Sequence record: NC_055712.1
Origin: Escherichia phage phT4A
Direction: 5' to 3' (one strand)
Length of the DNA: 64,000 nt
Under the pieces are notes generated by a model. That model was not told the DNA's origin. It made no database searches and saw only the letters and a program-made list of their open reading frames with translations. The position numbers and the translations under genes are program-made. Shown in pieces: positions 4,941 to 61,531 of this stretch (position 1 is its first letter; every line of letters starts with the position of its first letter).

Positions 4941-5040
4941 NNNNNNNNNNNNNNNNNNNNNNNNNNNNNNNNNNNNNNNNNNNNNNNNNNNNNNNNNNNN
5001 NNNNNNNNNNNNNNNNNNNNNNNNNNNNNNNNNNNNNNNN
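4941..5040. other. assembly gap (100 N)
   Basis: run of exactly 100 n. Confidence 0.99.
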
Positions 5041-5895: not shown

Positions 5896-5945
5896 GGTAT
5901 GTGTGTATAATACAAAAGCCCTCACGAGAACGCAAGGGCTTTTTA
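5896..5945 (-). promoter_or_regulatory. PeSL-like early promoter-stem-loop cassette
   Basis: minus strand TTGCGT-17nt-TATTAT with GC hairpin GCCCTTGCG..GTGAGGGC in -35/spacer, followed by ACACACAT leader. Confidence 0.55.
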
Positions 5946-5977
5946 TTAAATTTCGTATAAATCTGGATTCACAATAA

Positions 5978-6007
5978 CCGCACATAAAAGATCATCTATA
6001 TGTGCGG
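5978..6007 (-). terminator. stem-loop terminator after Nudix/NMNAT genes
   Basis: perfect 9-bp stem CCGCACATA/TATGTGCGG. Confidence 0.5.
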
Positions 6008-6043: not shown

Positions 6044-6622
6044 TCAAGCAACCCCCGTAAAGGCGTTTACTATCTGGAAATGATCATCGAAGAATTCCCC
6101 TTGTCGTTGCACGACCTCATGCATAGGTAGCCAGAACGCGTCTGCTGCATCATCAGCACCGCCCATGATACGAGGCAATGAACCATCGTTATTAGGTTCG
6201 AGCTTGATATACTGTGCTACAGTCGGTTTTGAGAAGTACACCGAACGTTTCGGATGATCGAACAGCATCGAATTACGGATAGAACCACGAATAACCTTTT
6301 CAGGTACTTTAATTCGTACTTCTTCCAGTAATTCACGGATCGCACAATCAAGGAACGTTTCGTTACCGTTTTTGTGTCCACCCGGAAGCGCTAACGCATC
6401 TTTACCAGGCGCAAACTTACGACGGATTACTAACACGTGGTTATTACATACGACCACTGAATCAGCCGTGCAACAGTTCAGAGAATCCGGATACGGATAT
6501 TTTTTGAACTTGTCAATCTCTCGTTGCCAGTGCGCATCTTCATGGGACAAACGCTGGAATTCTTTTGTTTGTGTCCATTCATCGATAAAGGAAACCGTAG
6601 TGCTAGGCGCATATTTTAACAA
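6044..6622 (-). CDS. Nudix hydrolase domain protein (probably C-terminal half of a NatV-like NMNAT-Nudix fusion)
   Basis: Nudix box GGHKNGNETFLDCAIRELLEEV; no ATG start (ORF track begins at TTG); reading frame open across stop of upstream NMNAT ORF. Confidence 0.7.
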   Translation of the reverse strand: MLKYAPSTTVSFIDEWTQTKEFQRLSHEDAHWQREIDKFKKYPYPDSLNCCTADSVVVCNNHVLVIRRKFAPGKDALALPGGHKNGNETFLDCAIRELLEEVRIKVPEKVIRGSIRNSMLFDHPKRSVYFSKPTVAQYIKLEPNNDGSLPRIMGGADDAADAFWLPMHEVVQRQGEFFDDHFQIVNAFTGVA

Positions 6623-7116
6623 ATCTTCGTCCCAGCTTCATGGTGTTCCCAGATAATTTTGCGTAAATTGGTCGAGGACAGATCCTGGTCTCCAACCTTC
6701 ACAGATTCAACCGGAATATGATTCCATCCGAATGCTTTAAGCCAGTAAGAATCTTTGTCTTTTTCGTACCCGACGATCGCAATTCGGTCATTTCGAGTTT
6801 CATCGATTGCCATACGAACACGGGATTTCCATTTTTCCTCGTTATAGAGATAATCCGGAATGTGAGCGAATTTGATTCTGGCTGCATCTTCAACATCAAG
6901 TTTGCAGATAGACCAGCGAGTGATCATTGCTTGACGCTGTTTAGCGGTCAATGGGTTTAATGTGTTCGGATATGCATAAGCAGAACCGATCAGAATGTAA
7001 ACCGTATCAGCAACAGCAAGGGCTTCCCTTACCATTTTCTCATGACCATAGTGAAAAGGTTGAAAACGTCCAATTACTACAGCTTTATCATATTTGTGTT
7101 TCATAACGTGCTCCAC
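6616..7116 (-). CDS. nicotinamide/nicotinate mononucleotide adenylyltransferase-like (NMNAT)
   Basis: HxGH motif VVIGRFQPFHYGH and C-terminal SxTxxR motif SSTNLRK. Confidence 0.7.
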   Translation of the reverse strand: MEHVMKHKYDKAVVIGRFQPFHYGHEKMVREALAVADTVYILIGSAYAYPNTLNPLTAKQRQAMITRWSICKLDVEDAARIKFAHIPDYLYNEEKWKSRVRMAIDETRNDRIAIVGYEKDKDSYWLKAFGWNHIPVESVKVGDQDLSSTNLRKIIWEHHEAGTKIC

Positions 7117-7253
7117 GTTTAAAGGTTAATCATAAAACAGACGCAATTATTAAAACACCAAACAATCCACCAATGAAACCAAAGAATAGTGAAATGAGTA
7201 TTGTCAATACGATCTGTTTTATGTTCATTATAGTATTCTCGTTTTAGATGTCA

Positions 7254-7272
7254 AGCCCCCAAAGAGGGGGCT
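7254..7272 (-). terminator. GC-rich hairpin after SPFH gene
   Basis: AGCCCCC-AAAGA-GGGGGCT; weak T-run. Confidence 0.45.
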
Positions 7273-7280
7273 TTAAAACA

Positions 7281-8207
7281 TTATTTACGAGAATCGAAAA
7301 TCACTTTACCCGCATAATCCGAACCCATTACAGTTTGAGGTACGCCACCTTTATAGCGGGTAGAGTAGTTCATCTGTACATCCAGTTCTTTCCAGCGGAT
7401 CATTTCCGGTGTAATGGTGCGTTGCAGGGCGGCGTTGGCTTCTGCTTCTTTCTTCGCTGCATACAGACGGGCATCAGCATCACGTTCGTTAGCGATTGCA
7501 GCGTTTTCACGCGCCTGGCGATCGGCTTCCGCTTGTTTTACTGCTTGTAATGAAGTCTGTTCTACTTTTTGCAGTTCAGCTTTAGCAGCGTTAACCTGTT
7601 CTTCGCGGATCTTCGTGTTAGTTACCTGTTCCATGATAACTTCCGGCAGGGTGATATCCTGCAAGAATACCTGTTTCACAGTGTAACCGTAAGGCCGTGC
7701 ATAATCTTCTACTTCCTGCTGAATTGCGATTTGCAGTTGGTTTTGGATCTTCGCATCAAACAGGTCTTGCGCTTTTGGTACGGATTTACCAAATTCGCGA
7801 ACAGTGGAAAGCAGTTTTTCAGTTACATACTTATCCAGTGCCTGATCCTGATTACCCGCGTTGATACGGTTGATCGGTGCTTTGCTACCGTCGAATTGCA
7901 GCATTACGGTCATATCCACAGTGGATTTAAATTTATCCTGGGACGGAACCTGTAATTTGTCGAACTTCATCGCGATGTCTTTGGTGCTGAACGTATCAAA
8001 CGTTGCCAGCGGGTTTACAATGTGGAAACCAGGCAGTACGGGTTTCGGTGATACTTTACCCATGAAGGTTTCAGTTTTAACCGTACCGTCTTGCACAATG
8101 GTATACATGTTAGGCACTAACCACAGTGCTGCGACTACGCCCAGAGCGATCAGAGAGGTTTTCTTCGGGTTGTTCACGATAGTGTTTAAGTTCATCATAA
8201 TTTCCAT
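7281..8207 (-). CDS. SPFH/band-7 (HflK/C-stomatin-prohibitin-like) membrane protein
   Basis: N-terminal TM helix SLIALGVVAALWLV, SPFH-like core, Ala/Gln/Glu-rich coiled coil AKAELQKVEQTSLQAVKQAEADRQARENAAIANERDADARLYAAKKEAEANAALQR. Confidence 0.65.
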   Translation of the reverse strand: MEIMMNLNTIVNNPKKTSLIALGVVAALWLVPNMYTIVQDGTVKTETFMGKVSPKPVLPGFHIVNPLATFDTFSTKDIAMKFDKLQVPSQDKFKSTVDMTVMLQFDGSKAPINRINAGNQDQALDKYVTEKLLSTVREFGKSVPKAQDLFDAKIQNQLQIAIQQEVEDYARPYGYTVKQVFLQDITLPEVIMEQVTNTKIREEQVNAAKAELQKVEQTSLQAVKQAEADRQARENAAIANERDADARLYAAKKEAEANAALQRTITPEMIRWKELDVQMNYSTRYKGGVPQTVMGSDYAGKVIFDSRK

Positions 8208-8266: not shown

Positions 8267-8650
8267 TTAAGAAAGTTTTGTCAGCTTGTAGATTGTTTGA
8301 TAGCACAAGCCCTTAATCTCGTCCAGGATGTTCTTCAAAGAACTATCTACTGATTCGTAGATCTCGTTTGCTTCGTTGGCTATTTTACGGAGATACGCCA
8401 CCGTGTCAAGCACATTTTCGGTTTTTAGCACAGGTTTGTATCTTCCCGTGATTCCTATGTGGATTTCGGTGAATTTATCAACCAAATCCTGCATATCTTC
8501 GTAAAAACCCTCATATGCTTTATGTTGTGAGTATGAACCTGTTGCAAAATGTGCGCTATGCATATAGGTAACGGACATAAGGCACATGCCAATAAAGGCA
8601 TCTATCTTGCTTGAGTTCTCAGATTCTGTAATTTGTTTAAATGATTGCAT
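8267..8650 (-). CDS. hypothetical protein
   Basis: start moved to MQSFKQ with AAGGGA RBS. Confidence 0.4.
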   Translation of the reverse strand: MQSFKQITESENSSKIDAFIGMCLMSVTYMHSAHFATGSYSQHKAYEGFYEDMQDLVDKFTEIHIGITGRYKPVLKTENVLDTVAYLRKIANEANEIYESVDSSLKNILDEIKGLCYQTIYKLTKLS

Positions 8651-8660
8651 GATGATCCCT

Positions 8661-8963
8661 TTATGAACGATGGATACTTGCAAACTCATACGCGACCCTG
8701 ATTCCTAGCTTTGCGCATTCGGATTCAGATCGGCATTGTTTTTGGTGCCATTTTCGTTCCATGTAGTTGTAGAATAGTTCGCTTGTATTTACGCTGGGAG
8801 GGATCGTTGTGATGTATACTTGAAGGGCCGCATTAATATAATCGTCAAATTCTTTCTGAACCGGACGGTCGGCGGCGTGTGTTGTGGGTGTCATCATCAA
8901 CAATCCGAACAGCACAGCCATTGATATGCGTTTAATGTTCATAACAATTACTCTTTTACTCAT
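8661..8963 (-). CDS. secreted/periplasmic protein with signal peptide
   Basis: N-terminus MNIKRISMAVLFGLLMMTPTTHA-ADRP, AxA-type cleavage site. Confidence 0.45.
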   Translation of the reverse strand: MSKRVIVMNIKRISMAVLFGLLMMTPTTHAADRPVQKEFDDYINAALQVYITTIPPSVNTSELFYNYMERKWHQKQCRSESECAKLGIRVAYEFASIHRS

Positions 8964-10745: not shown

Positions 10746-11219
10746 TTAATTCGCCTTACGAGGATCGAAATGAACGACAATGATCGGGTAATCACCAGTC
10801 ACCTCATTAATAATGCGCTTAATGAGTTCCCAGTCGCCCCCAGCGAGGCCAGCACCGATTAAAGGTGTGATGATAGGCTTTCCAGTCTTAACGGCGTCAG
10901 CAAGCCCTACAGCCTGTTTAAAAGCATTGCCGATTGCGTCATAATCGACACGCGGCCCAGGTGTCCAGAAATCATATTGAGTATATGCATTGAAAACAAT
11001 GTTGCCTTTTTCGCCAATGTAAACAGAACAAGTTCCGAGCTTATCACGGGAACCTTTTAACGTATTGGCATCAACTTGAAATGCACCAGGAATACGATCG
11101 CGGATTTCGCGAGCAATACCAGCGCCCATATTGCAATAGCAGTTGCATCCGTGGATCAAATGGCCTTCACCGTTCAGATACATATTGACAGCATTACCTT
11201 TCACTTCTTTAATGATCAT
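10746..11219 (-). CDS. macro domain (ADP-ribose binding/processing) protein
   Basis: Gly-rich loops GCNCYCNMGAGIAREI and ITPLIGAGLAGGDW resemble macro-domain phosphate-binding loops; start set at MIIKEVKG. Confidence 0.5.
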   Translation of the reverse strand: MIIKEVKGNAVNMYLNGEGHLIHGCNCYCNMGAGIAREIRDRIPGAFQVDANTLKGSRDKLGTCSVYIGEKGNIVFNAYTQYDFWTPGPRVDYDAIGNAFKQAVGLADAVKTGKPIITPLIGAGLAGGDWELIKRIINEVTGDYPIIVVHFDPRKAN

Positions 11220-13921: not shown

Positions 13922-14116
13922 TTACAATTCAACCTCGTTTTTACAGTATATACATTCAATAAAATCAACTTTTCGCATGTTGAAGAAATATGAACCCTCA
14001 GAAGATTTTTCCTTGTGTTTTACATCTTCCGCGTCATATTTCATAGTAGTATCACAACAATTGCACGTAACAATACGAGATTTTGCATTTATGATCTCAA
14101 TCATGATACACCTCAA
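13922..14116 (-). CDS. small zinc-ribbon protein
   Basis: CNCC...CIYC; paralog of next ORF. Confidence 0.4.
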   Translation of the reverse strand: MRCIMIEIINAKSRIVTCNCCDTTMKYDAEDVKHKEKSSEGSYFFNMRKVDFIECIYCKNEVEL

Positions 14117-17179: not shown

Positions 17180-17590
17180 TTAATAATCGTAAAGATCACC
17201 GAAACATTCGTCATACTCGCGTTTACGTTCAATTTGCTCGTTTCTACGATCTTCCATATATGGAGGAAGACGGTTTTCATTGACTTCATCAATGTAAGCC
17301 TGTGCATCCTCTTTTGTTAGAAAGAATGCATGGAAATTGTACCCGTTGTACCCGTTGTACCCGTTCATACTACGATCTTCAAGAGAGAATTCTGTGTGAC
17401 AGTCCCAGTCTTTGTACAGGGTGATACATTTAGCAAACAGCCCAATACCGCGATGAATGTATGGGAATCCAGTAACAATCATCTTGCTACCCATTTCCGC
17501 ATTTTCTCCGTTCACACAGAATACTTCATACATGATCGCGCCTGGTTTAACATCTTTCTTAACAGCACGTTTTTCAAAAGCACTTTTCAT
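17180..17590 (-). CDS. hypothetical protein with NGY tandem repeat
   Basis: 136-aa ORF containing NGYNGYNGYN. Confidence 0.4.
   Translation of the reverse strand: MKSAFEKRAVKKDVKPGAIMYEVFCVNGENAEMGSKMIVTGFPYIHRGIGLFAKCITLYKDWDCHTEFSLEDRSMNGYNGYNGYNFHAFFLTKEDAQAYIDEVNENRLPPYMEDRRNEQIERKREYDECFGDLYDY
17338..17367. repeat. 3 x 9-bp tandem repeat (ACCCGTTGT) inside CDS
   Basis: acccgttgtacccgttgtacccgtt read directly. Confidence 0.7.
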
Positions 17591-19562: not shown

Positions 19563-19896
19563 ACATTCTTTCCTTCTGTTCTGTGCTCATGCCATACAAC
19601 TGAGAGCGTATACGGTCTTGTATACGACGCGTTTCGTTTTGCATCAGTTGGTTTGAAAGAATCAAATCGACCACCGCGCCGCGAACTTTCCATAGATAAT
19701 CAATCATCGCCATATCTTCATCAGTATGGAAACCCTTCGCATCACATTCATAGATAATGCTTTGCCTTTCCGCCATTGCCATTTCTGCTGTCGCCGGAGT
19801 AGCCAGAGAATATTCATACTTCTCGATCAATGATTCCAGTGTACGTGGTTTTACGGGAATGTCAACAGTTATTGGACGAATCATATACAGCCCCAC
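19543..19896 (-). CDS. hypothetical protein
   Basis: 117-aa ORF. Confidence 0.4.
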   Translation of the reverse strand: MGLYMIRPITVDIPVKPRTLESLIEKYEYSLATPATAEMAMAERQSIIYECDAKGFHTDEDMAMIDYLWKVRGAVVDLILSNQLMQNETRRIQDRIRSQLYGMSTEQKERMYARNNR

Positions 19897-20177
19897 TTAT
19901 CACCATCTGCTTTAATCTGTAAATTAGCCAGGAATGAAAACATAATATCACAGTTGCTTTCGATTAGATAGCGATATTTTAATACGGTACTTACCTCTTC
20001 CGGTTCTACCGTAGTGACCTTAATGTCTTTAGCACAAAGATCATAATCGTTACAGTACCCGTCAATATCCATAAGCGTTTTGTTTTCATCTGGATATAAT
20101 TCCAGCAAATACGCATCTTCATCAGTTACCAGCGCAACTATCCGGTTGCGCCTTGTGTTATAGGTTAAGATCTTCAT
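19881..20177 (-). CDS. hypothetical protein
   Basis: 98-aa ORF. Confidence 0.4.
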   Translation of the reverse strand: MKILTYNTRRNRIVALVTDEDAYLLELYPDENKTLMDIDGYCNDYDLCAKDIKVTTVEPEEVSTVLKYRYLIESNCDIMFSFLANLQIKADGDKWGCI

Positions 20178-27690: not shown

Positions 27691-28098
27691 TCATCTTGCT
27701 AAAATTTTAGGCAGTAGTTGCCCCATCGTTTTACGTGCATGTGACGGAATCTGTGATACTGGGACATATTTGAAATCATCCATTTCACGTATAGTCCGTC
27801 CGTTCTTAACGAAAGTGGATGCACAATAGCATTCTTCCGCTACTGGGTAATCTTGCCCTACATAGAGAAATAAAGCAAGGTTTTTTGTTTTCGTGTAATC
27901 GAGAACACCCAGGCTAACCAATTCCTCCGCGAACACTTCAAATCCTGTTTCTTCAAAGCATTCACGGATCGCCGCGTCAATATGAGTTTCGCCCTTTTCA
28001 ACATGCCCCTTCGGAATATCCCAATGGGGCGTTTCAGTGGCATGGCCCATCAACACGGCACCATCTTTAATAAAGATAATACCCGCTGATAGTTCCAT
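27691..28098 (-). CDS. Nudix hydrolase (NudE-like)
   Basis: canonical Nudix box GHVEKGETHIDAAIRECFEETGF. Confidence 0.8.
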   Translation of the reverse strand: MELSAGIIFIKDGAVLMGHATETPHWDIPKGHVEKGETHIDAAIRECFEETGFEVFAEELVSLGVLDYTKTKNLALFLYVGQDYPVAEECYCASTFVKNGRTIREMDDFKYVPVSQIPSHARKTMGQLLPKILAR

Positions 28099-32748: not shown

Positions 32749-33538
32749 ATGACTCACTTGAAAAAATTCAAAGAATTTCTGACCGAAGGTAAAACCCTCG
32801 CTCGTACCGTAGCACGTGGTCAACGCGCTAAAAACTTCCGATAAACATTCAATCGGTTTTCTTCACTTCAAACATGGTTCTGATTTCGAAGTTTTAGCAC
32901 CGGATTCTCACGATCTGGCATACTTCGGTAAAAACATTGTACGTTTGAAAGGTATGACTACTGGTAAAGTTCAAGCGGCTTATGTCGATTGGGCTAAAGG
33001 TACTGTTTCTTTCTACAGTGGCAATCCGGATGATGATCTGGATTTCGACAAACCAGAAAAATTCAAAGCTGCTACTCTGTATGAAGAGGCGGAAGAAAAT
33101 CTGGATCTGTATAACCAGTTAGCAGAAGATTTCGAAATCGAGATCCCTATGGATGAAGCTCTGGTGAAAGGTAAAGTTTACAAACTCCCAAGCAACGATA
33201 TGCGTCTTCTGTACACTGGGCGTTCTAAAACTAAAGCAAGCGGTGAATATGCAGTGTTTACCGTAGTTGATGCTTCCGGCAAACCTCGCCTAGTATCTGG
33301 TAAAAAATTCACCCAAGAATATAAAGGCGATATGGTTTCTAAACTGGTTCTGGCTGAATCCGAAGATCTGAATGAAGCGGCTAAAGGCATTCGCGAAAAA
33401 GTTATTGCTGTGATGGTGAAACGCGGGTTTAACGAAAAAGATGCAGAAAAGATGGTTGACAAAAACCTGAAAGATGCTATGAAAGTTAGACCTGGTGCGA
33501 CCCCTGGCAAACTTGCAGAAATAGTTAGCACCCTGTAA
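32749..33538 (+). CDS. internal-head-protein-like protein with capsid-targeting-like N-terminus; frame broken by one extra A in A5 run 32830-32834
   Basis: ATG at 32749 with AGGAAAAACAAAATG RBS; N-terminus MTHLKKFKEFLTE resembles T4 IP targeting sequence MKTYQEFIAE; frame open to 33538 after a +1 shift; strongly biased codon usage. Confidence 0.5.
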
Positions 33539-37337: not shown

Positions 37338-37437
37338 NNNNNNNNNNNNNNNNNNNNNNNNNNNNNNNNNNNNNNNNNNNNNNNNNNNNNNNNNNNNNNN
37401 NNNNNNNNNNNNNNNNNNNNNNNNNNNNNNNNNNNNN
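37338..37437. other. assembly gap (100 N)
   Basis: run of exactly 100 n. Confidence 0.99.
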
Positions 37438-49790: not shown

Positions 49791-51543
49791 ATGATCATCG
49801 ACAAATTAAACCCGTTGCCGAAGATCCCGTTTGTTGATGGCGTCCCAGATGACGCCACGACTCAAACGAAGATTATTTGGATCAAAAACGGTGAAACTCT
49901 GGACGGTTCGCCAGATAAAGTGTCAAACACTGGTAGTCTTAACCGAACTGGTGTAAACATCCAGCAGAACGCGGTTCAGTTAGAACAAAATACCATCACC
50001 CATAATGATAAAATCAACGAAGTAATCGATCAGGTTAACTTGATTACTGAAAACATTGATGCTATTGGTGATGAGAGCGTAATCAAAAAAAGTTAACCAG
50101 TTGGATCAGGATGTTCAGGCATTAACTTTATCTAACACCCAAACACAGAACAAGGTAGCACAGTTAACCCTTTCTGTAAATGCTCAGAACGATGAAATTG
50201 GGGAATACGATCCAGAAAAGGATCCTAAACACCGCACAATTCGTAATGATATCATTTACATTAAGAAAGAAGTTGGTTCATATCCTGGATTTAACGTTGA
50301 TGGTGATGTTGACCCCTCTTCTACTGGTACTGGCCTTAAATACCGCGTACTGAGTAACCAACGTGCTATTTCTATGCAGGAAACTCGCATAACCAAACTG
50401 GAAGATGATTGGGCGCTTTCCGAAGTAGGACAACTGACAGAAGAGGTAAAAGAACTTCGTGCTGAAATGGGTGATTCTGGTCTTGCCACAACCCGATCAA
50501 TCTATGCGCGAATCAAGATCCTTGAGGATGGTTCTATTGTAATGCAAAATGAACTTGATGCGATTAATAGTTATATCGGTCGCACGTCAGGTTCAACCAG
50601 TTCCATTAACGATCGTGTGAACAGTCTGGAAAACTCCGTTAGTTCTCTGGCTACACAAATCAATGATCCGGTAACTGGTATCACTGCACAAATTGCAACC
50701 ATTAACGGTCAAATCGGTACGGCTTCTGCTCAGGGTAGTATCCGTTATGATATTGCGGAAACTAAACGCAGATTGATGGATATGGAAATGATTCTGGGTG
50801 AATCCGGCGATGATGGATTGCAGGGACAAGTTGCGATCTTAACTGGTGACGTTGGTGAAGATTCAGATCCTACCAGTATCAAAGGCCGTTTGAGTGTTGT
50901 TGAGGGTGAATTACGCACCAACACTAGCGCACTCTGGGAACTGCAAGGCGTTGTAGGTAACTCTTCTAGTGGCCTCGTTGCAACTAGCCAGCAGATTAAC
51001 AAAGAAATCTATGGTGATGGTGTTAGTTCCGATCCTGTTACTCGCGCTGGTTTGAAAACAACAACCCGCAACCTGTTCACTCAGGTAGGAGATAACTCCG
51101 AAGGTAACGAAACGGGCATTTATGCACTGATTGCCGACCTTACTAAACGTGTTGAGGATTTAGAAGCGTTGAACATTGCACAGGCACTTGCAGATCGCGT
51201 AACTATCGAAGATCTGAATGCTAAACTGGCTCTGTACATCAAAGAAGCTGACGCCGATCTCCGTTATGAGAGCAAAAACCCGCCTCTGTCATTCGGTACT
51301 AACCTAACTGGTGATACTGAATACACTACTGGCGATCCATTGTCTCTAAGCGTAACTATGAATGGTGGTGTTTCTCCGCTGTCTTACCAGTGGACGAAAA
51401 ACGGCGTAAACGTTGGTACTGATGCTAACACATTTACCATCGATTCGCTACAGCCTTCTGATTCCGGAACTTACAAAGTAACGGTAACTGATGCAAGCCA
51501 TAAAGTCATCGTTTCTGATGAACTGGCGATCACTGTCGCTTAA
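49791..51543 (+). CDS. wac: fibritin (wac, whisker/neck fibre) with apparent +1 frame break at A7 run 50085-50091 and Ig-like C-terminal domain
   Basis: N-terminus LPKIPFVDGVPDD...IIWIKNGETL like T4 Wac; segmented coiled-coil body; C-terminus SYQWTKNGVNV...SGTYKVTVTD Ig-like; frames rejoin if one A is removed. Confidence 0.75.
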
Positions 51544-52517: not shown

Positions 52518-53132
52518 ATGCAATTTAGATTATATCTAGTAGAGTTTAAAACTTCTACGGGAATAAAAATATATGGAGGTAAACGCCATTCTCCATTTAA
52601 TGATCCTAGACATGATTGTTATTGCGGATCTGGGGTATACATCAAACGAGCATTAAAAAAATATGGAAGAGAATGTATTGTTAATATACAATGGTCAAAA
52701 CCGTTTCCAAACAAGGATTTATTAGCGGAAGCCGAAGAATTACTTGTTGATGAGTTGATAGCATCTTATGATAATTGTGTTAATTTAGTTCGTGGCGGTA
52801 AAGGAGGTGCTTCTTTTTATAATCCAGAAGATAACCCTAATTTTGGTTCTAAACGATCTATTGAATCTAAAATAAAGATGTCAGAAAAGGCAAAAAATAG
52901 GGTTTATAGCGAGGAAGGACTAAAACGAAGACAGGAAGCCACTAGGGTCATGATTCAACACAGAAAGCCTCGTGATGTTTCTGGAAGCAAAAACCCAGCC
53001 GCACGAAGGGTAATTGTGGATGGAGTAGAATACTCAACATTGAAAGAATGTGGAGATCATTACGGGATAACTAAAAACTCCGTCTTTAGTCGAATAAAAT
53101 CTAAGAAATGGGAGGGATGGAATTATGCGTGA
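52518..53132 (+). CDS. GIY-YIG homing endonuclease (seg-like) inserted between gp13 and gp14
   Basis: FRLYLVEF...IKIYGG GIY-YIG-like N-terminus, C-terminal DNA-binding tail RRVIVDGVEYSTLKECGDHYGITKNSVFSRIKSKKWEGW; markedly AT-rich; overlaps gp14 start. Confidence 0.7.
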   Translation: MQFRLYLVEFKTSTGIKIYGGKRHSPFNDPRHDCYCGSGVYIKRALKKYGRECIVNIQWSKPFPNKDLLAEAEELLVDELIASYDNCVNLVRGGKGGASFYNPEDNPNFGSKRSIESKIKMSEKAKNRVYSEEGLKRRQEATRVMIQHRKPRDVSGSKNPAARRVIVDGVEYSTLKECGDHYGITKNSVFSRIKSKKWEGWNYA

Positions 53133-53871
53133 TTGGGATGATAATTTATTCGCACAGTTGGAATCTGGCGAAGGTGTTGATAATAGTTTAAAAACGGAAG
53201 TTACTAACAAATACGTTAACTGGTACAAGTATAACCCTACTCAACAGTTACATGATTCACTAACAGCCGAAGCAATTCAAATGAAATCTCCGGATATGTA
53301 TTACGTCCGTCGAGAATTTGTTAATATTGATAAAATTTTGGGTGAAGACCGTGAATCGAAGTTTACAAAATCGTGGAAAATTGCAGCATACATCGATTCG
53401 TATGCAAACTACGAAGGACAGAGAGACTTTTACAGCAAATTCGGTATGATGTCAAACGATGAAATGACACTTGTGATCAATCCTCGTTTATTTGCACATC
53501 AAACTGATGGCGGGATCCCTGTTCTGGGGGATTTGATTTATTTCCCTATGGATAATAGCCTGTTTGAAATTACATGGATTGAGTTTGATCCGTTCTTCCA
53601 GTTCGGTGATCGTCCTCAACGTAAAATCAACCTCGTTAAATTTATCTATACTGGTGAAGAATTGGATCCTAAACTGCAACGAAATGAAGGGATTAACCTT
53701 GCTCCAGATGCTGATCTGGATCTCGAACCTATTCGAAATCTTGATGGATTGGCTGATACCAATATTGAACAATACGAAGAAGATCAAGCCTTTGAAGATG
53801 AAGGCGATGAATTCATTGAATCGTTTGATGTTGTTAACGGACGCGGATCACCGTTCGCACAGTTCCCATAA
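53125..53871 (+). CDS. 14: neck protein gp14
   Basis: DLIYFPMDNSLFEITWIE, FIYTGEELDPKLQRNEGIN colinear with T4 gp14. Confidence 0.9.
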   Translation: MRDWDDNLFAQLESGEGVDNSLKTEVTNKYVNWYKYNPTQQLHDSLTAEAIQMKSPDMYYVRREFVNIDKILGEDRESKFTKSWKIAAYIDSYANYEGQRDFYSKFGMMSNDEMTLVINPRLFAHQTDGGIPVLGDLIYFPMDNSLFEITWIEFDPFFQFGDRPQRKINLVKFIYTGEELDPKLQRNEGINLAPDADLDLEPIRNLDGLADTNIEQYEEDQAFEDEGDEFIESFDVVNGRGSPFAQFP

Positions 53872-59713: not shown

Positions 59714-61288
59714 ATGAACTTTTTTGGATTAGACAATGTGTTAGGGTTTTTCAAAAATTTCGCCAAACAGGATGAAATGGAATTTGAAGCCCAATTAAAA
59801 GATGATACAGGTTCGATTGCGCCTCCGAAAAATAACGACGGGGCGCACGAAATCGAAACGGACTTATCAAACCAGCGTTATTCTTCTGTGTTCCAACAGT
59901 TCTATTCCGGACAGGATCCGCGAATTCAGAACAAAACACAGCTAATAAATACATACCGTGGCATCATGACATACCCGGAAGTGGAAAACGCTGTTTCTGA
60001 AATCATTAACGAAGCGATTGTTAATGAACAAGGAAAAGATATTGTTACGATGGATCTTACTAAAACGAATTTTAGTAAAAATATCCAAGATAAGATCATG
60101 GAAGAACTCGATACCGTAATGAATATTCACGATTTCGATAACCGAGGCTCTCGTTTATTCCGTGATTGGTATGTTGATTCGCGTATCTATTTCCATAAAA
60201 TCATGCACAAAAATGAAGCTGACGGCATCAAAGAATTGCGCCAGTTAGATCCCCGTTGCATGGAACTGATCCGAGAATCGGTTACAGAAACCCTACCCGG
60301 TGGGGTTAAAATTTTCCGTGGCTATCGTGAATACTTCGTATACACCGCACCGAAAAACGGTTATAGCTACAACGGACAGATTTATAGTCACAATGACAAG
60401 GTAAAAATTCCTCGCTCTGCGATTGTTTACGCTCATAGCGGCCTTGAAGATTGCGACAACAACATTATAGGCTACCTGCACCGCGCGGTCAAGCCAGCTA
60501 ACCAGTTGCGTTTGCTGGAAGATGCTATGGTGATTTACCGTATTACCCGTGCGCCTGAACGTCGTGTGTTCTATATCGACGTAGGTCAGATGGGTGGCCC
60601 TAAAGCTACACAGTACGTAAATAACATTGCACAGGGCTTAAAAAACCGTGTTGTATATGACGCGAGCACTGGTAAAGTTAAGAATCAGCAAAATAACCTG
60701 TCAATGACAGAGGACTATTGGCTGATGCGTCGTGATGGTAAAGCAGTTACCGAAGTTTCAACGCTTCCTGGTGGCACTGCCTTCTCTGATATCGACGATG
60801 TTAAATGGTTTAACCGTAAGCTGTATGAAGCGTTGCGTATTCCGTTAAGCCGTATGCCTCGCGATGATGGCGGTATCCAGTTGGGTAACGATGGCGGTAT
60901 TACCCGCGACGAATTGAACTTTAGCAAATTTATTCGCGAATTGCAAATTCAATTCAACCCTGTTCTTGCGGATCCGTTAAAAACTAACTTGATCGCGAAG
61001 AAAATCATTACAGAAGATGAATGGGATGAAAACGTAAGTAAGATTGCTTTTGTATATCAGCAAGATTCTTACTATTCCGAAATCAAAGATATTGAGATTT
61101 TGGAACGCCGTTTAAACCTGATGGGCCAACTTGAAGGAGTGGTCGGCAAATATATCTCCCATAAATACGTAATGAAAGAAGTTCTCCGGATGTCTGATGA
61201 GGAAATTCAAAGCGAAGCCAAACAGATAGAAGAAGAATCAAAAGAAGAACGTTTTAAAAATCCAGAAGCGGAAGAGGAAAACTTTTGA
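59714..61288 (+). CDS. 20: portal vertex protein gp20
   Basis: 524 aa as in T4 gp20, synteny. Confidence 0.88.
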   Translation: MNFFGLDNVLGFFKNFAKQDEMEFEAQLKDDTGSIAPPKNNDGAHEIETDLSNQRYSSVFQQFYSGQDPRIQNKTQLINTYRGIMTYPEVENAVSEIINEAIVNEQGKDIVTMDLTKTNFSKNIQDKIMEELDTVMNIHDFDNRGSRLFRDWYVDSRIYFHKIMHKNEADGIKELRQLDPRCMELIRESVTETLPGGVKIFRGYREYFVYTAPKNGYSYNGQIYSHNDKVKIPRSAIVYAHSGLEDCDNNIIGYLHRAVKPANQLRLLEDAMVIYRITRAPERRVFYIDVGQMGGPKATQYVNNIAQGLKNRVVYDASTGKVKNQQNNLSMTEDYWLMRRDGKAVTEVSTLPGGTAFSDIDDVKWFNRKLYEALRIPLSRMPRDDGGIQLGNDGGITRDELNFSKFIRELQIQFNPVLADPLKTNLIAKKIITEDEWDENVSKIAFVYQQDSYYSEIKDIEILERRLNLMGQLEGVVGKYISHKYVMKEVLRMSDEEIQSEAKQIEEESKEERFKNPEAEEENF

Positions 61289-61531
61289 TGAAAGAATTTA
61301 TCGAAGCAATCAAAAGCGGTAATCTGGTGGAAGCTAAAAAAAACTTTTTACTCCATCATGGAAGACCGCAAAGAAGCGCTTCGTCACGAATTGCGCGTTG
61401 AACTTGCCGAAGCTGTACGCATCGAAGGCGAAGAAGACAAAGAAAAAGACGACGAAGGCGCTGATAAAGATGACGAAAATGGCGATAAAAAGCCAGCCGA
61501 GGATGATAAATCCGATAAAGATGATGAGTGA
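61288..61531 (+). CDS. 67: prohead core protein gp67, frame broken at A8 run 61336-61343
   Basis: MKEFIEAIKSGNLVEAKK then +1 shift into ...SIMEDRKEALRHE...acidic tail KDDE; resembles T4 gp67 MEGLIEAIKSNDLVAARK. Confidence 0.7.

Follow-up and report, generated by a model that had tools for sequence, protein, structure and literature searches.

Several phage pathways that rebuild NAD+ have been described, and NARP2 is the one to which the locus analyzed here compares most directly. NARP2 was named by Osterman et al., who showed that type I Thoeris and DSR2 are overcome, and NAD+ levels increased, by the Nampt and Nmnat pair of Vibrio phage KVP40 (bioRxiv 10.1101/2024.02.11.579819). The same study reports that NARP2 consumes PRPP and that the KVP40 operon is toxic in E. 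coli (bioRxiv 10.1101/2024.02.11.579819). The Nmnat component of the KVP40 pathway is the protein NatV, and natV and nadV are documented to occur together in phages (PMC7139368). NARP3 is a distinct pathway, made up of a NadR-like enzyme and the transporter PnuC (PMC13464706). For the genus Slopekvirus, the 2015 genome announcement of phage Miro noted the gene in related phages and not in T4 (PMC4591322), and a 2025 study reports that NAD salvage enzymes are encoded by all Klebsiella Slopekvirus phages (PMC11845039). The gene family, its occurrence in Slopekvirus, and the NARP2 pathway are already known and published, and the first-pass annotation of this DNA overstated the novelty of the gene, because it has been annotated and discussed for Slopekvirus since 2015.

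We analyzed a stretch of 64,000 nt, hereafter the window. Its natV region shows 99.0-99.6% nucleotide identity to many Slopekvirus Klebsiella phages (e.g., Miro, PMBT1, KP15, R2_1, and CP-p-KP-21068), and the best record for a 25-kb span shows about 98% identity. By these identities, the window is classified as a scaffold of a Slopekvirus (Straboviridae, T4-like), of a strain distinct from the phages in the collection. We hold with good confidence that this locus carries natV in its Slopekvirus version, with a role in the NAD+ pathway, that its split in the window is a base-calling or assembly error, and that the real phage makes the fused protein.

Domains and reading frames of the natV-like gene

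The ORF listing of the window places two overlapping ORFs, 6616-7116 and 6044-6622, on the minus strand. The first-pass annotation assigned an NMNAT domain to the former and a Nudix domain to the latter, and both are found by Pfam searches (CTP_transf_like, PF01467, 1.5e-11; NUDIX, PF00293, 2.2e-13). The coordinates of the gene, of its two frames, and of the other features are collected in Table 1. The gene starts at ATG 7104 and stops at TGA 6046-6044. GTG 7116 is merely the mechanical start of the listed ORF and overlaps the GGAG ribosome-binding site; the true start is ATG 7104, as annotated in the relatives, and the Miro record carries an annotated RBS at the position equivalent to this GGAG.

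Table 1. Features of the natV-like locus, of its Nampt partner in a relative, and of the scaffold
Feature	Position	Strand	Details
natV-like gene (bifunctional NMN adenylyltransferase / Nudix ADP-ribose pyrophosphatase)	6044-7104	-	1061 nt; frameshifted at codon 157
NMNAT-domain frame	6616-7104	-	residues 1-156 authentic, then 6 out-of-frame residues (AGTKIC) and TAA
Nudix-domain frame	6044-6637	-	residues 157-353 of the intact protein
Missing-base site	6636-6637	-	relatives GAAGGCTGG; window GAAGCTGG (GG to G); codon 157
GGAG ribosome-binding site	7111-7114	-	6 nt upstream of ATG 7104; direct sequence reading
Sigma-70 consensus promoter (TTGACA, 16-nt spacer, TATAAT), predicted	7227-7254	-	12/12 matches in scan
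Two hairpin + T-run terminators	~5978-6007 and 5913-5944 (5913-6007)	-	downstream of natV-like gene
100-N run	4941-5040		flanks 878 nt apart in all available relatives
100-N run	37338-37437		flanks 544 nt apart in all available relatives
Conserved 262-aa hypothetical protein gene	32749-33535	+	private +1, A4 to A5 at 32830-32834
Fibritin (neck whisker) gene	49791-51540	+	private +1, A6 to A7 at 50085-50091
80-aa prohead core protein gene (gp67-like)	61288-61528	+	private +1, A7 to A8 at 61336-61343
Nampt (477-aa nicotinamide phosphoribosyltransferase)	PV864763.1 50448-51881		~16.8 kb past the window end in the closest relative

With the intact protein as query, tblastn places residues 1-157 in frame -2 and residues 157-353 in frame -1 of the window. 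The Nudix frame is in the -1 register with respect to the NMNAT frame. It is open from 6637, which is five codons 5' of TTG 6622, and shares about 20 nt with the 3' end of the NMNAT ORF. The first-pass annotation had described the Nudix ORF as lacking an ATG start and staying open across the NMNAT stop codon (6616-6618), and both points were reproduced here: translation shows no ATG upstream of the Nudix fold in the Nudix frame, and TTG 6622 is the sole start candidate. An indel that fuses the two frames is possible only within 6619-6637. The placement of the indel at 6599-6613 in the first-pass annotation was wrong, because the NMNAT frame has already terminated upstream of that interval and an indel there cannot fuse the frames; the missing G is at 6636/6637.

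Sequence comparisons leave the homology of the gene product to the NadM-Nudix family unambiguous. The two ORFs are consecutive parts of the NCBIfam family PRK05379 (354 positions), with the NMNAT ORF matching positions 10-160 and the Nudix ORF matching positions 175-354. The best NCBIfam model, NF003786, scores 262.8 bits (E 5e-78), below its cutoff of 397 bits. The trusted cutoffs of the PRK05379 equivalog models range from 354 to 449 bits, and the lower score of the phage protein indicates that it belongs to a diverged clade. Two solved structures match the intact protein over its full length, the Synechocystis NadM-Nudix enzyme slr0787 (2QJO; residues 1-350, 3.3e-53) and that of Francisella tularensis (2QJT/2R5W; 7.3e-44), and all of them share GRFQPFHxGH, SSTxxR, and a Nudix box with R for G. 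The HxGH (FHYGH) and SxTxxR (SSTNLRK) motifs and the Nudix box read in the first pass are intact on the protein repaired by restoring one G. In the numbering of this repaired protein, the HYGH of the nucleotidyltransferase motif GRFQPFHYGH is at residue 18, in alignment with the equivalent motif of 2QJO; LSSTNLR occupies residues 142-148 (SSTNLR from 143) and aligns with FSSTAIR of 2QJO; and the Nudix box GHKNGNETFLDCAIRELLEEVRI is at residue 243. Compared to the consensus GX5EX7REUXEEXGU, this box carries R in place of G, as does that of the solved Synechocystis enzyme.

The repaired protein is also 39% identical to KVP40 NatV (KVP40.0162) over 348 aligned residues (E 8e-82), a full-length match that bears out the likeness to vibriophage NatV proposed earlier. 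The two proteins have the two-domain architecture in common, while KVP40 belongs to a different genus and infects a different host from Slopekvirus. The NARP3 protein Bas30_86, a NadR-like enzyme that combines an NMNAT with a ribosylnicotinamide kinase (RNK), has the NMNAT module in common with this protein and likewise serves to rebuild NAD+; it differs in having the RNK domain where the phage protein has the Nudix domain, and in having the PnuC transporter, not Nampt, as its partner (PMC13464706). The protein of the window scores weakly against NadR models.

The missing base and the origin of the split

In all four relatives inspected, the locus is a single 1062-nt CDS encoding 353 aa, and three of the four records give it an NMNAT/Nudix or cytidyltransferase name. 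It is labeled "bifunctional NMN adenylyltransferase/NUDIX hydrolase" in Miro (AKU44716.1), "NadM family / ADP-ribose pyrophosphatase" in PMBT1 (SCO64710.1), and "cytidyltransferase" in CP-p-KP-21068 (XXQ00884.1), and names of these kinds also stand under the natV match in many further records of the hit tables. The locus and its neighbors are the same in these phages as in the window, and the difference is the absence of one G at codon 157 of the window, which splits the ORF. Alignment of the junction with the four relatives contains this one gap, and the rest of its 122 columns are identical. Restoring one G gives a 353-aa translation with no amino-acid differences from the CP-p-KP-21068 and R2_1 proteins (100% identity), the repaired gene differing from theirs by 3-4 nucleotides, all synonymous; compared to Miro and PMBT1, the repaired protein shows 2-3 amino-acid differences. 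No decay of the gene beyond the frameshift is seen when the repaired gene is compared with these relatives. The two domains, which are on separate frames in the window as written, are on one polypeptide in all relatives inspected and after the G is restored, and the two ORFs are the halves of one NatV-like gene split by a single-base indel, as the first-pass annotation had supposed.

The deletion is private to the window among the records searched. The 81-mer of the window across the junction is identical in none of the 111 related records matched, and each of the 60 listed among these 111 aligns to the junction query with exactly one gap (82 nt for 81 nt). Exact searches with a 41-mer containing the deletion found no match in IMG/VR, in GTDB genome contigs (one genome per species), or in JGI metagenome contigs. 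Two IMG/VR contigs carry the intact 42-mer. No record was found of the exact 162-aa truncated product.

We also compared the rest of the scaffold with its relatives. The window contains two runs of 100 N (Table 1), and 100 N is a conventional placeholder for a gap. Masking of an equal length of sequence was rejected as an explanation of these runs, since 878 and 544 nt stand at these places in the relatives, and at both runs the alignments continue right up to the first and last N. The window is taken as a draft assembly because the two runs are scaffold gaps of unspecified length. In addition, three insertions in A-runs each split a conserved gene (Table 1). The exact sequence of the window was found in none of 108 related records at the hypothetical protein gene, in none of 108 at the fibritin gene (81-mer across the A-run), and in none of 111 at the prohead core gene. 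The prohead core protein gp67 is essential in T4, and it is difficult to see how a T4-like phage could be viable with its prohead core protein frameshifted. As a baseline, comparison of two finished relatives, PMBT1 and CP-p-KP-21068, over 47 kb shows five 1-nt indels that are uncompensated, and all five are intergenic changes in homopolymer length.

With four private indels that break the frame of genes otherwise conserved perfectly, and with gaps in the scaffold, the split is best explained as an artefact of sequencing or assembly; a private mutation of very recent date is less likely. This weighing comes from comparison between records. We attribute the separate frames of the NMNAT and Nudix domains to a probable sequence error, and because the missing G is most likely an error of the draft scaffold, the normal fused protein is very probably what the real phage makes. 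One property of the lesion speaks against an artefact: it takes one base out of a GG dinucleotide, which is less typical of sequencing error than the insertions in the three A-runs.

The location of the lesion outside any long homopolymer speaks for the rival reading, in which the deletion is real, a very recent private mutation that would have turned natV into a fresh pseudogene with loss of NARP2, or into separate truncated fragments. We consider this improbable, though well short of negligible. The products would be an NMNAT of 156 aa followed by six junk residues and a Nudix fragment weakly re-initiated at TTG; the TTG at 6622 shares bases with the TAA that ends the upstream frame (TTGTTAA), a geometry compatible with translational coupling. 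Because NARP2 is costly in its use of PRPP and the KVP40 operon is toxic in E. coli (bioRxiv 10.1101/2024.02.11.579819), loss of natV could be tolerated or even selected on hosts without NAD+-depleting defences. However, the junction is present in no related record and in no contig collection searched, and the absence of amino-acid changes compared to two relatives means that no further decay has taken place. The other three private frameshifts on the same scaffold, one of them in the gp67-like prohead core gene, and the N gaps weigh further against a real mutation, as does the damage it would do: whatever follows the SxTxxR motif in the NMNAT domain is lost by the truncation, and the Nudix half is left without an ATG. 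If the deletion were real, the phage would be a natural NARP2 knockout and could serve as an isogenic control for the contribution of NARP2 in Klebsiella hosts with SIR2/TIR defences.

Regulated production of NMNAT alone or NMNAT-Nudix, by programmed -1 ribosomal frameshifting or transcriptional slippage, would suit the -1 relation of the two frames and their overlap of about 20 nt, and we give it almost no weight. It is effectively refuted by comparison with the relatives: the fusion is in a single frame in every one inspected, so there is no conserved recoding site, and the lesion is a plain deletion relative to an otherwise identical sequence. Direct reading of the overlap GAAGCTGGGACGAAGATTTGTTAA also shows neither an X XXY YYZ slippery heptamer nor a long homopolymer. 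A natural division into NMNAT and Nudix genes, ancestral or typical of the phage group, has in its favor the few distant phages that match the NMNAT half only (e.g., Myxococcus phage Mx1, 44%, and an Acinetobacter phage, 54%), but it is hardly credible and is refuted by the single CDS in the relatives and by the 466 phage records with natV homologs, 434 of which, including all Slopekvirus matches listed, match 80% or more of the fused protein at a single location; moreover, the halves in the window are collinear halves of PRK05379, and the break falls inside the C-terminal part of the NMNAT domain and does not coincide with a domain boundary that has a start codon of its own.

With an error of the draft scaffold as the preferred reading, the annotation of the scaffold should merge the two ORFs or flag the frameshift, and likewise for at least three other genes.

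Two further differences from CP-p-KP-21068 were observed elsewhere in the window. At about 17340-17365, inside a small hypothetical gene, the window has a net gain of 9 nt, which is in frame and yields three tandem copies of GTACCCGTT. In four short stretches (1254-1487, 13923-14109, 19564-20126, and 52524-53196), megablast gives no match to CP-p-KP-21068, the closest relative; these are variable or mosaic segments, and some are near genes annotated as homing endonucleases in relatives.

The Nampt partner and the predicted NAD+ pathway

A NadV (Nampt) partner, for which the first-pass annotation had proposed a search, is found in the relatives and not in the window, where tblastn returned only chance matches (E > 1). 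Since the KVP40 pair is non-adjacent, we walked the whole annotation of PV864763.1, and Nampt was located beyond the position equivalent to the window end (Table 1). This protein matches PF04095 and PF18127 and scores 464 bits with NF006629, above the 405-bit cutoff, and 108 phage records carry it at 99% identity or more. In KVP40 and in the Slopekvirus relative alike, natV and nampt are non-adjacent. By these family assignments, the Slopekvirus genus carries the published NARP2 pair (Nampt and Nmnat), and Nampt is expected in the window's own genome.

From the functions of their families, Nampt would convert nicotinamide and PRPP to NMN, and the N-terminal domain of NatV would convert NMN and ATP to NAD+. 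The Nudix domain of NatV would probably hydrolyze ADP-ribose, a product of NAD+ cleavage, to AMP and ribose-5-phosphate, which may feed PRPP synthesis. Together, Nampt and NatV could replenish NAD+ during infection and could defeat NAD+-depleting defences in the manner of NARP2. The NAD+ salvage and counter-defence role suggested by the first-pass annotation agrees with published NARP2; activity and counter-defence have been demonstrated for the KVP40 genes only, and the Slopekvirus proteins are known here from their sequences. Slopekvirus phages are candidates for Klebsiella phage therapy, and the pair would bear on their performance against NAD+-depleting hosts.

Transcription signals and neighboring genes

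The promoter upstream of the natV-like gene matches the sigma-70 consensus at every position of both hexamers and is about 120 nt from the gene (Table 1). It is predicted to be an early promoter used by host RNA polymerase. Downstream of the gene are two hairpins followed by T-runs, which are visible in the sequence of the window and equivalent to terminators annotated in Miro; a simple terminator scan did not report them, and they were kept on homology and direct reading. The perfect sigma-70 promoter and the two downstream terminators suggest that natV is an early monocistronic unit transcribed by the host polymerase.

Between the promoter and natV, on the same strand, is a very hydrophobic ORF of 32 codons (7130-7228; MNIKQIVLTILISLFFGFIGGLFGVLIIASVL), which is annotated as a CDS in one relative. 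Its ATG overlaps the -10 hexamer, and it therefore could not be translated from the transcript of this promoter. Immediately upstream of natV, also on the minus strand, is a gene for a 308-aa protein (7281-8207) that relatives annotate as an SPFH/band-7 domain protein or a lipoprotein, and farther upstream on this strand is a gene for a 140-aa protein (8267-8689), a "starvation-inducible transcriptional regulator" in relatives.

The first-pass annotation had also pointed to a second Nudix hydrolase and a macro-domain protein, and Pfam searches recover both domains. The gene at 27691-28098 matches PF00293 (1.3e-14) and is a Nudix hydrolase in the annotation of relatives. The announcement of the Miro genome mentions a T4-like NudE protein in that phage (PMC4591322), and this NudE is probably the product of the gene at 27691-28098. 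The protein encoded at 10746-11219 on the minus strand matches PF01661 (5.2e-7) and may be another ADP-ribose-handling gene product of the early region. It also shows a weaker, sub-threshold likeness to the macro domain of Thoeris ThsA (PF20016, 8e-4), and the equivalent gene of one relative is a "phosphatase" in the Pharokka annotation.
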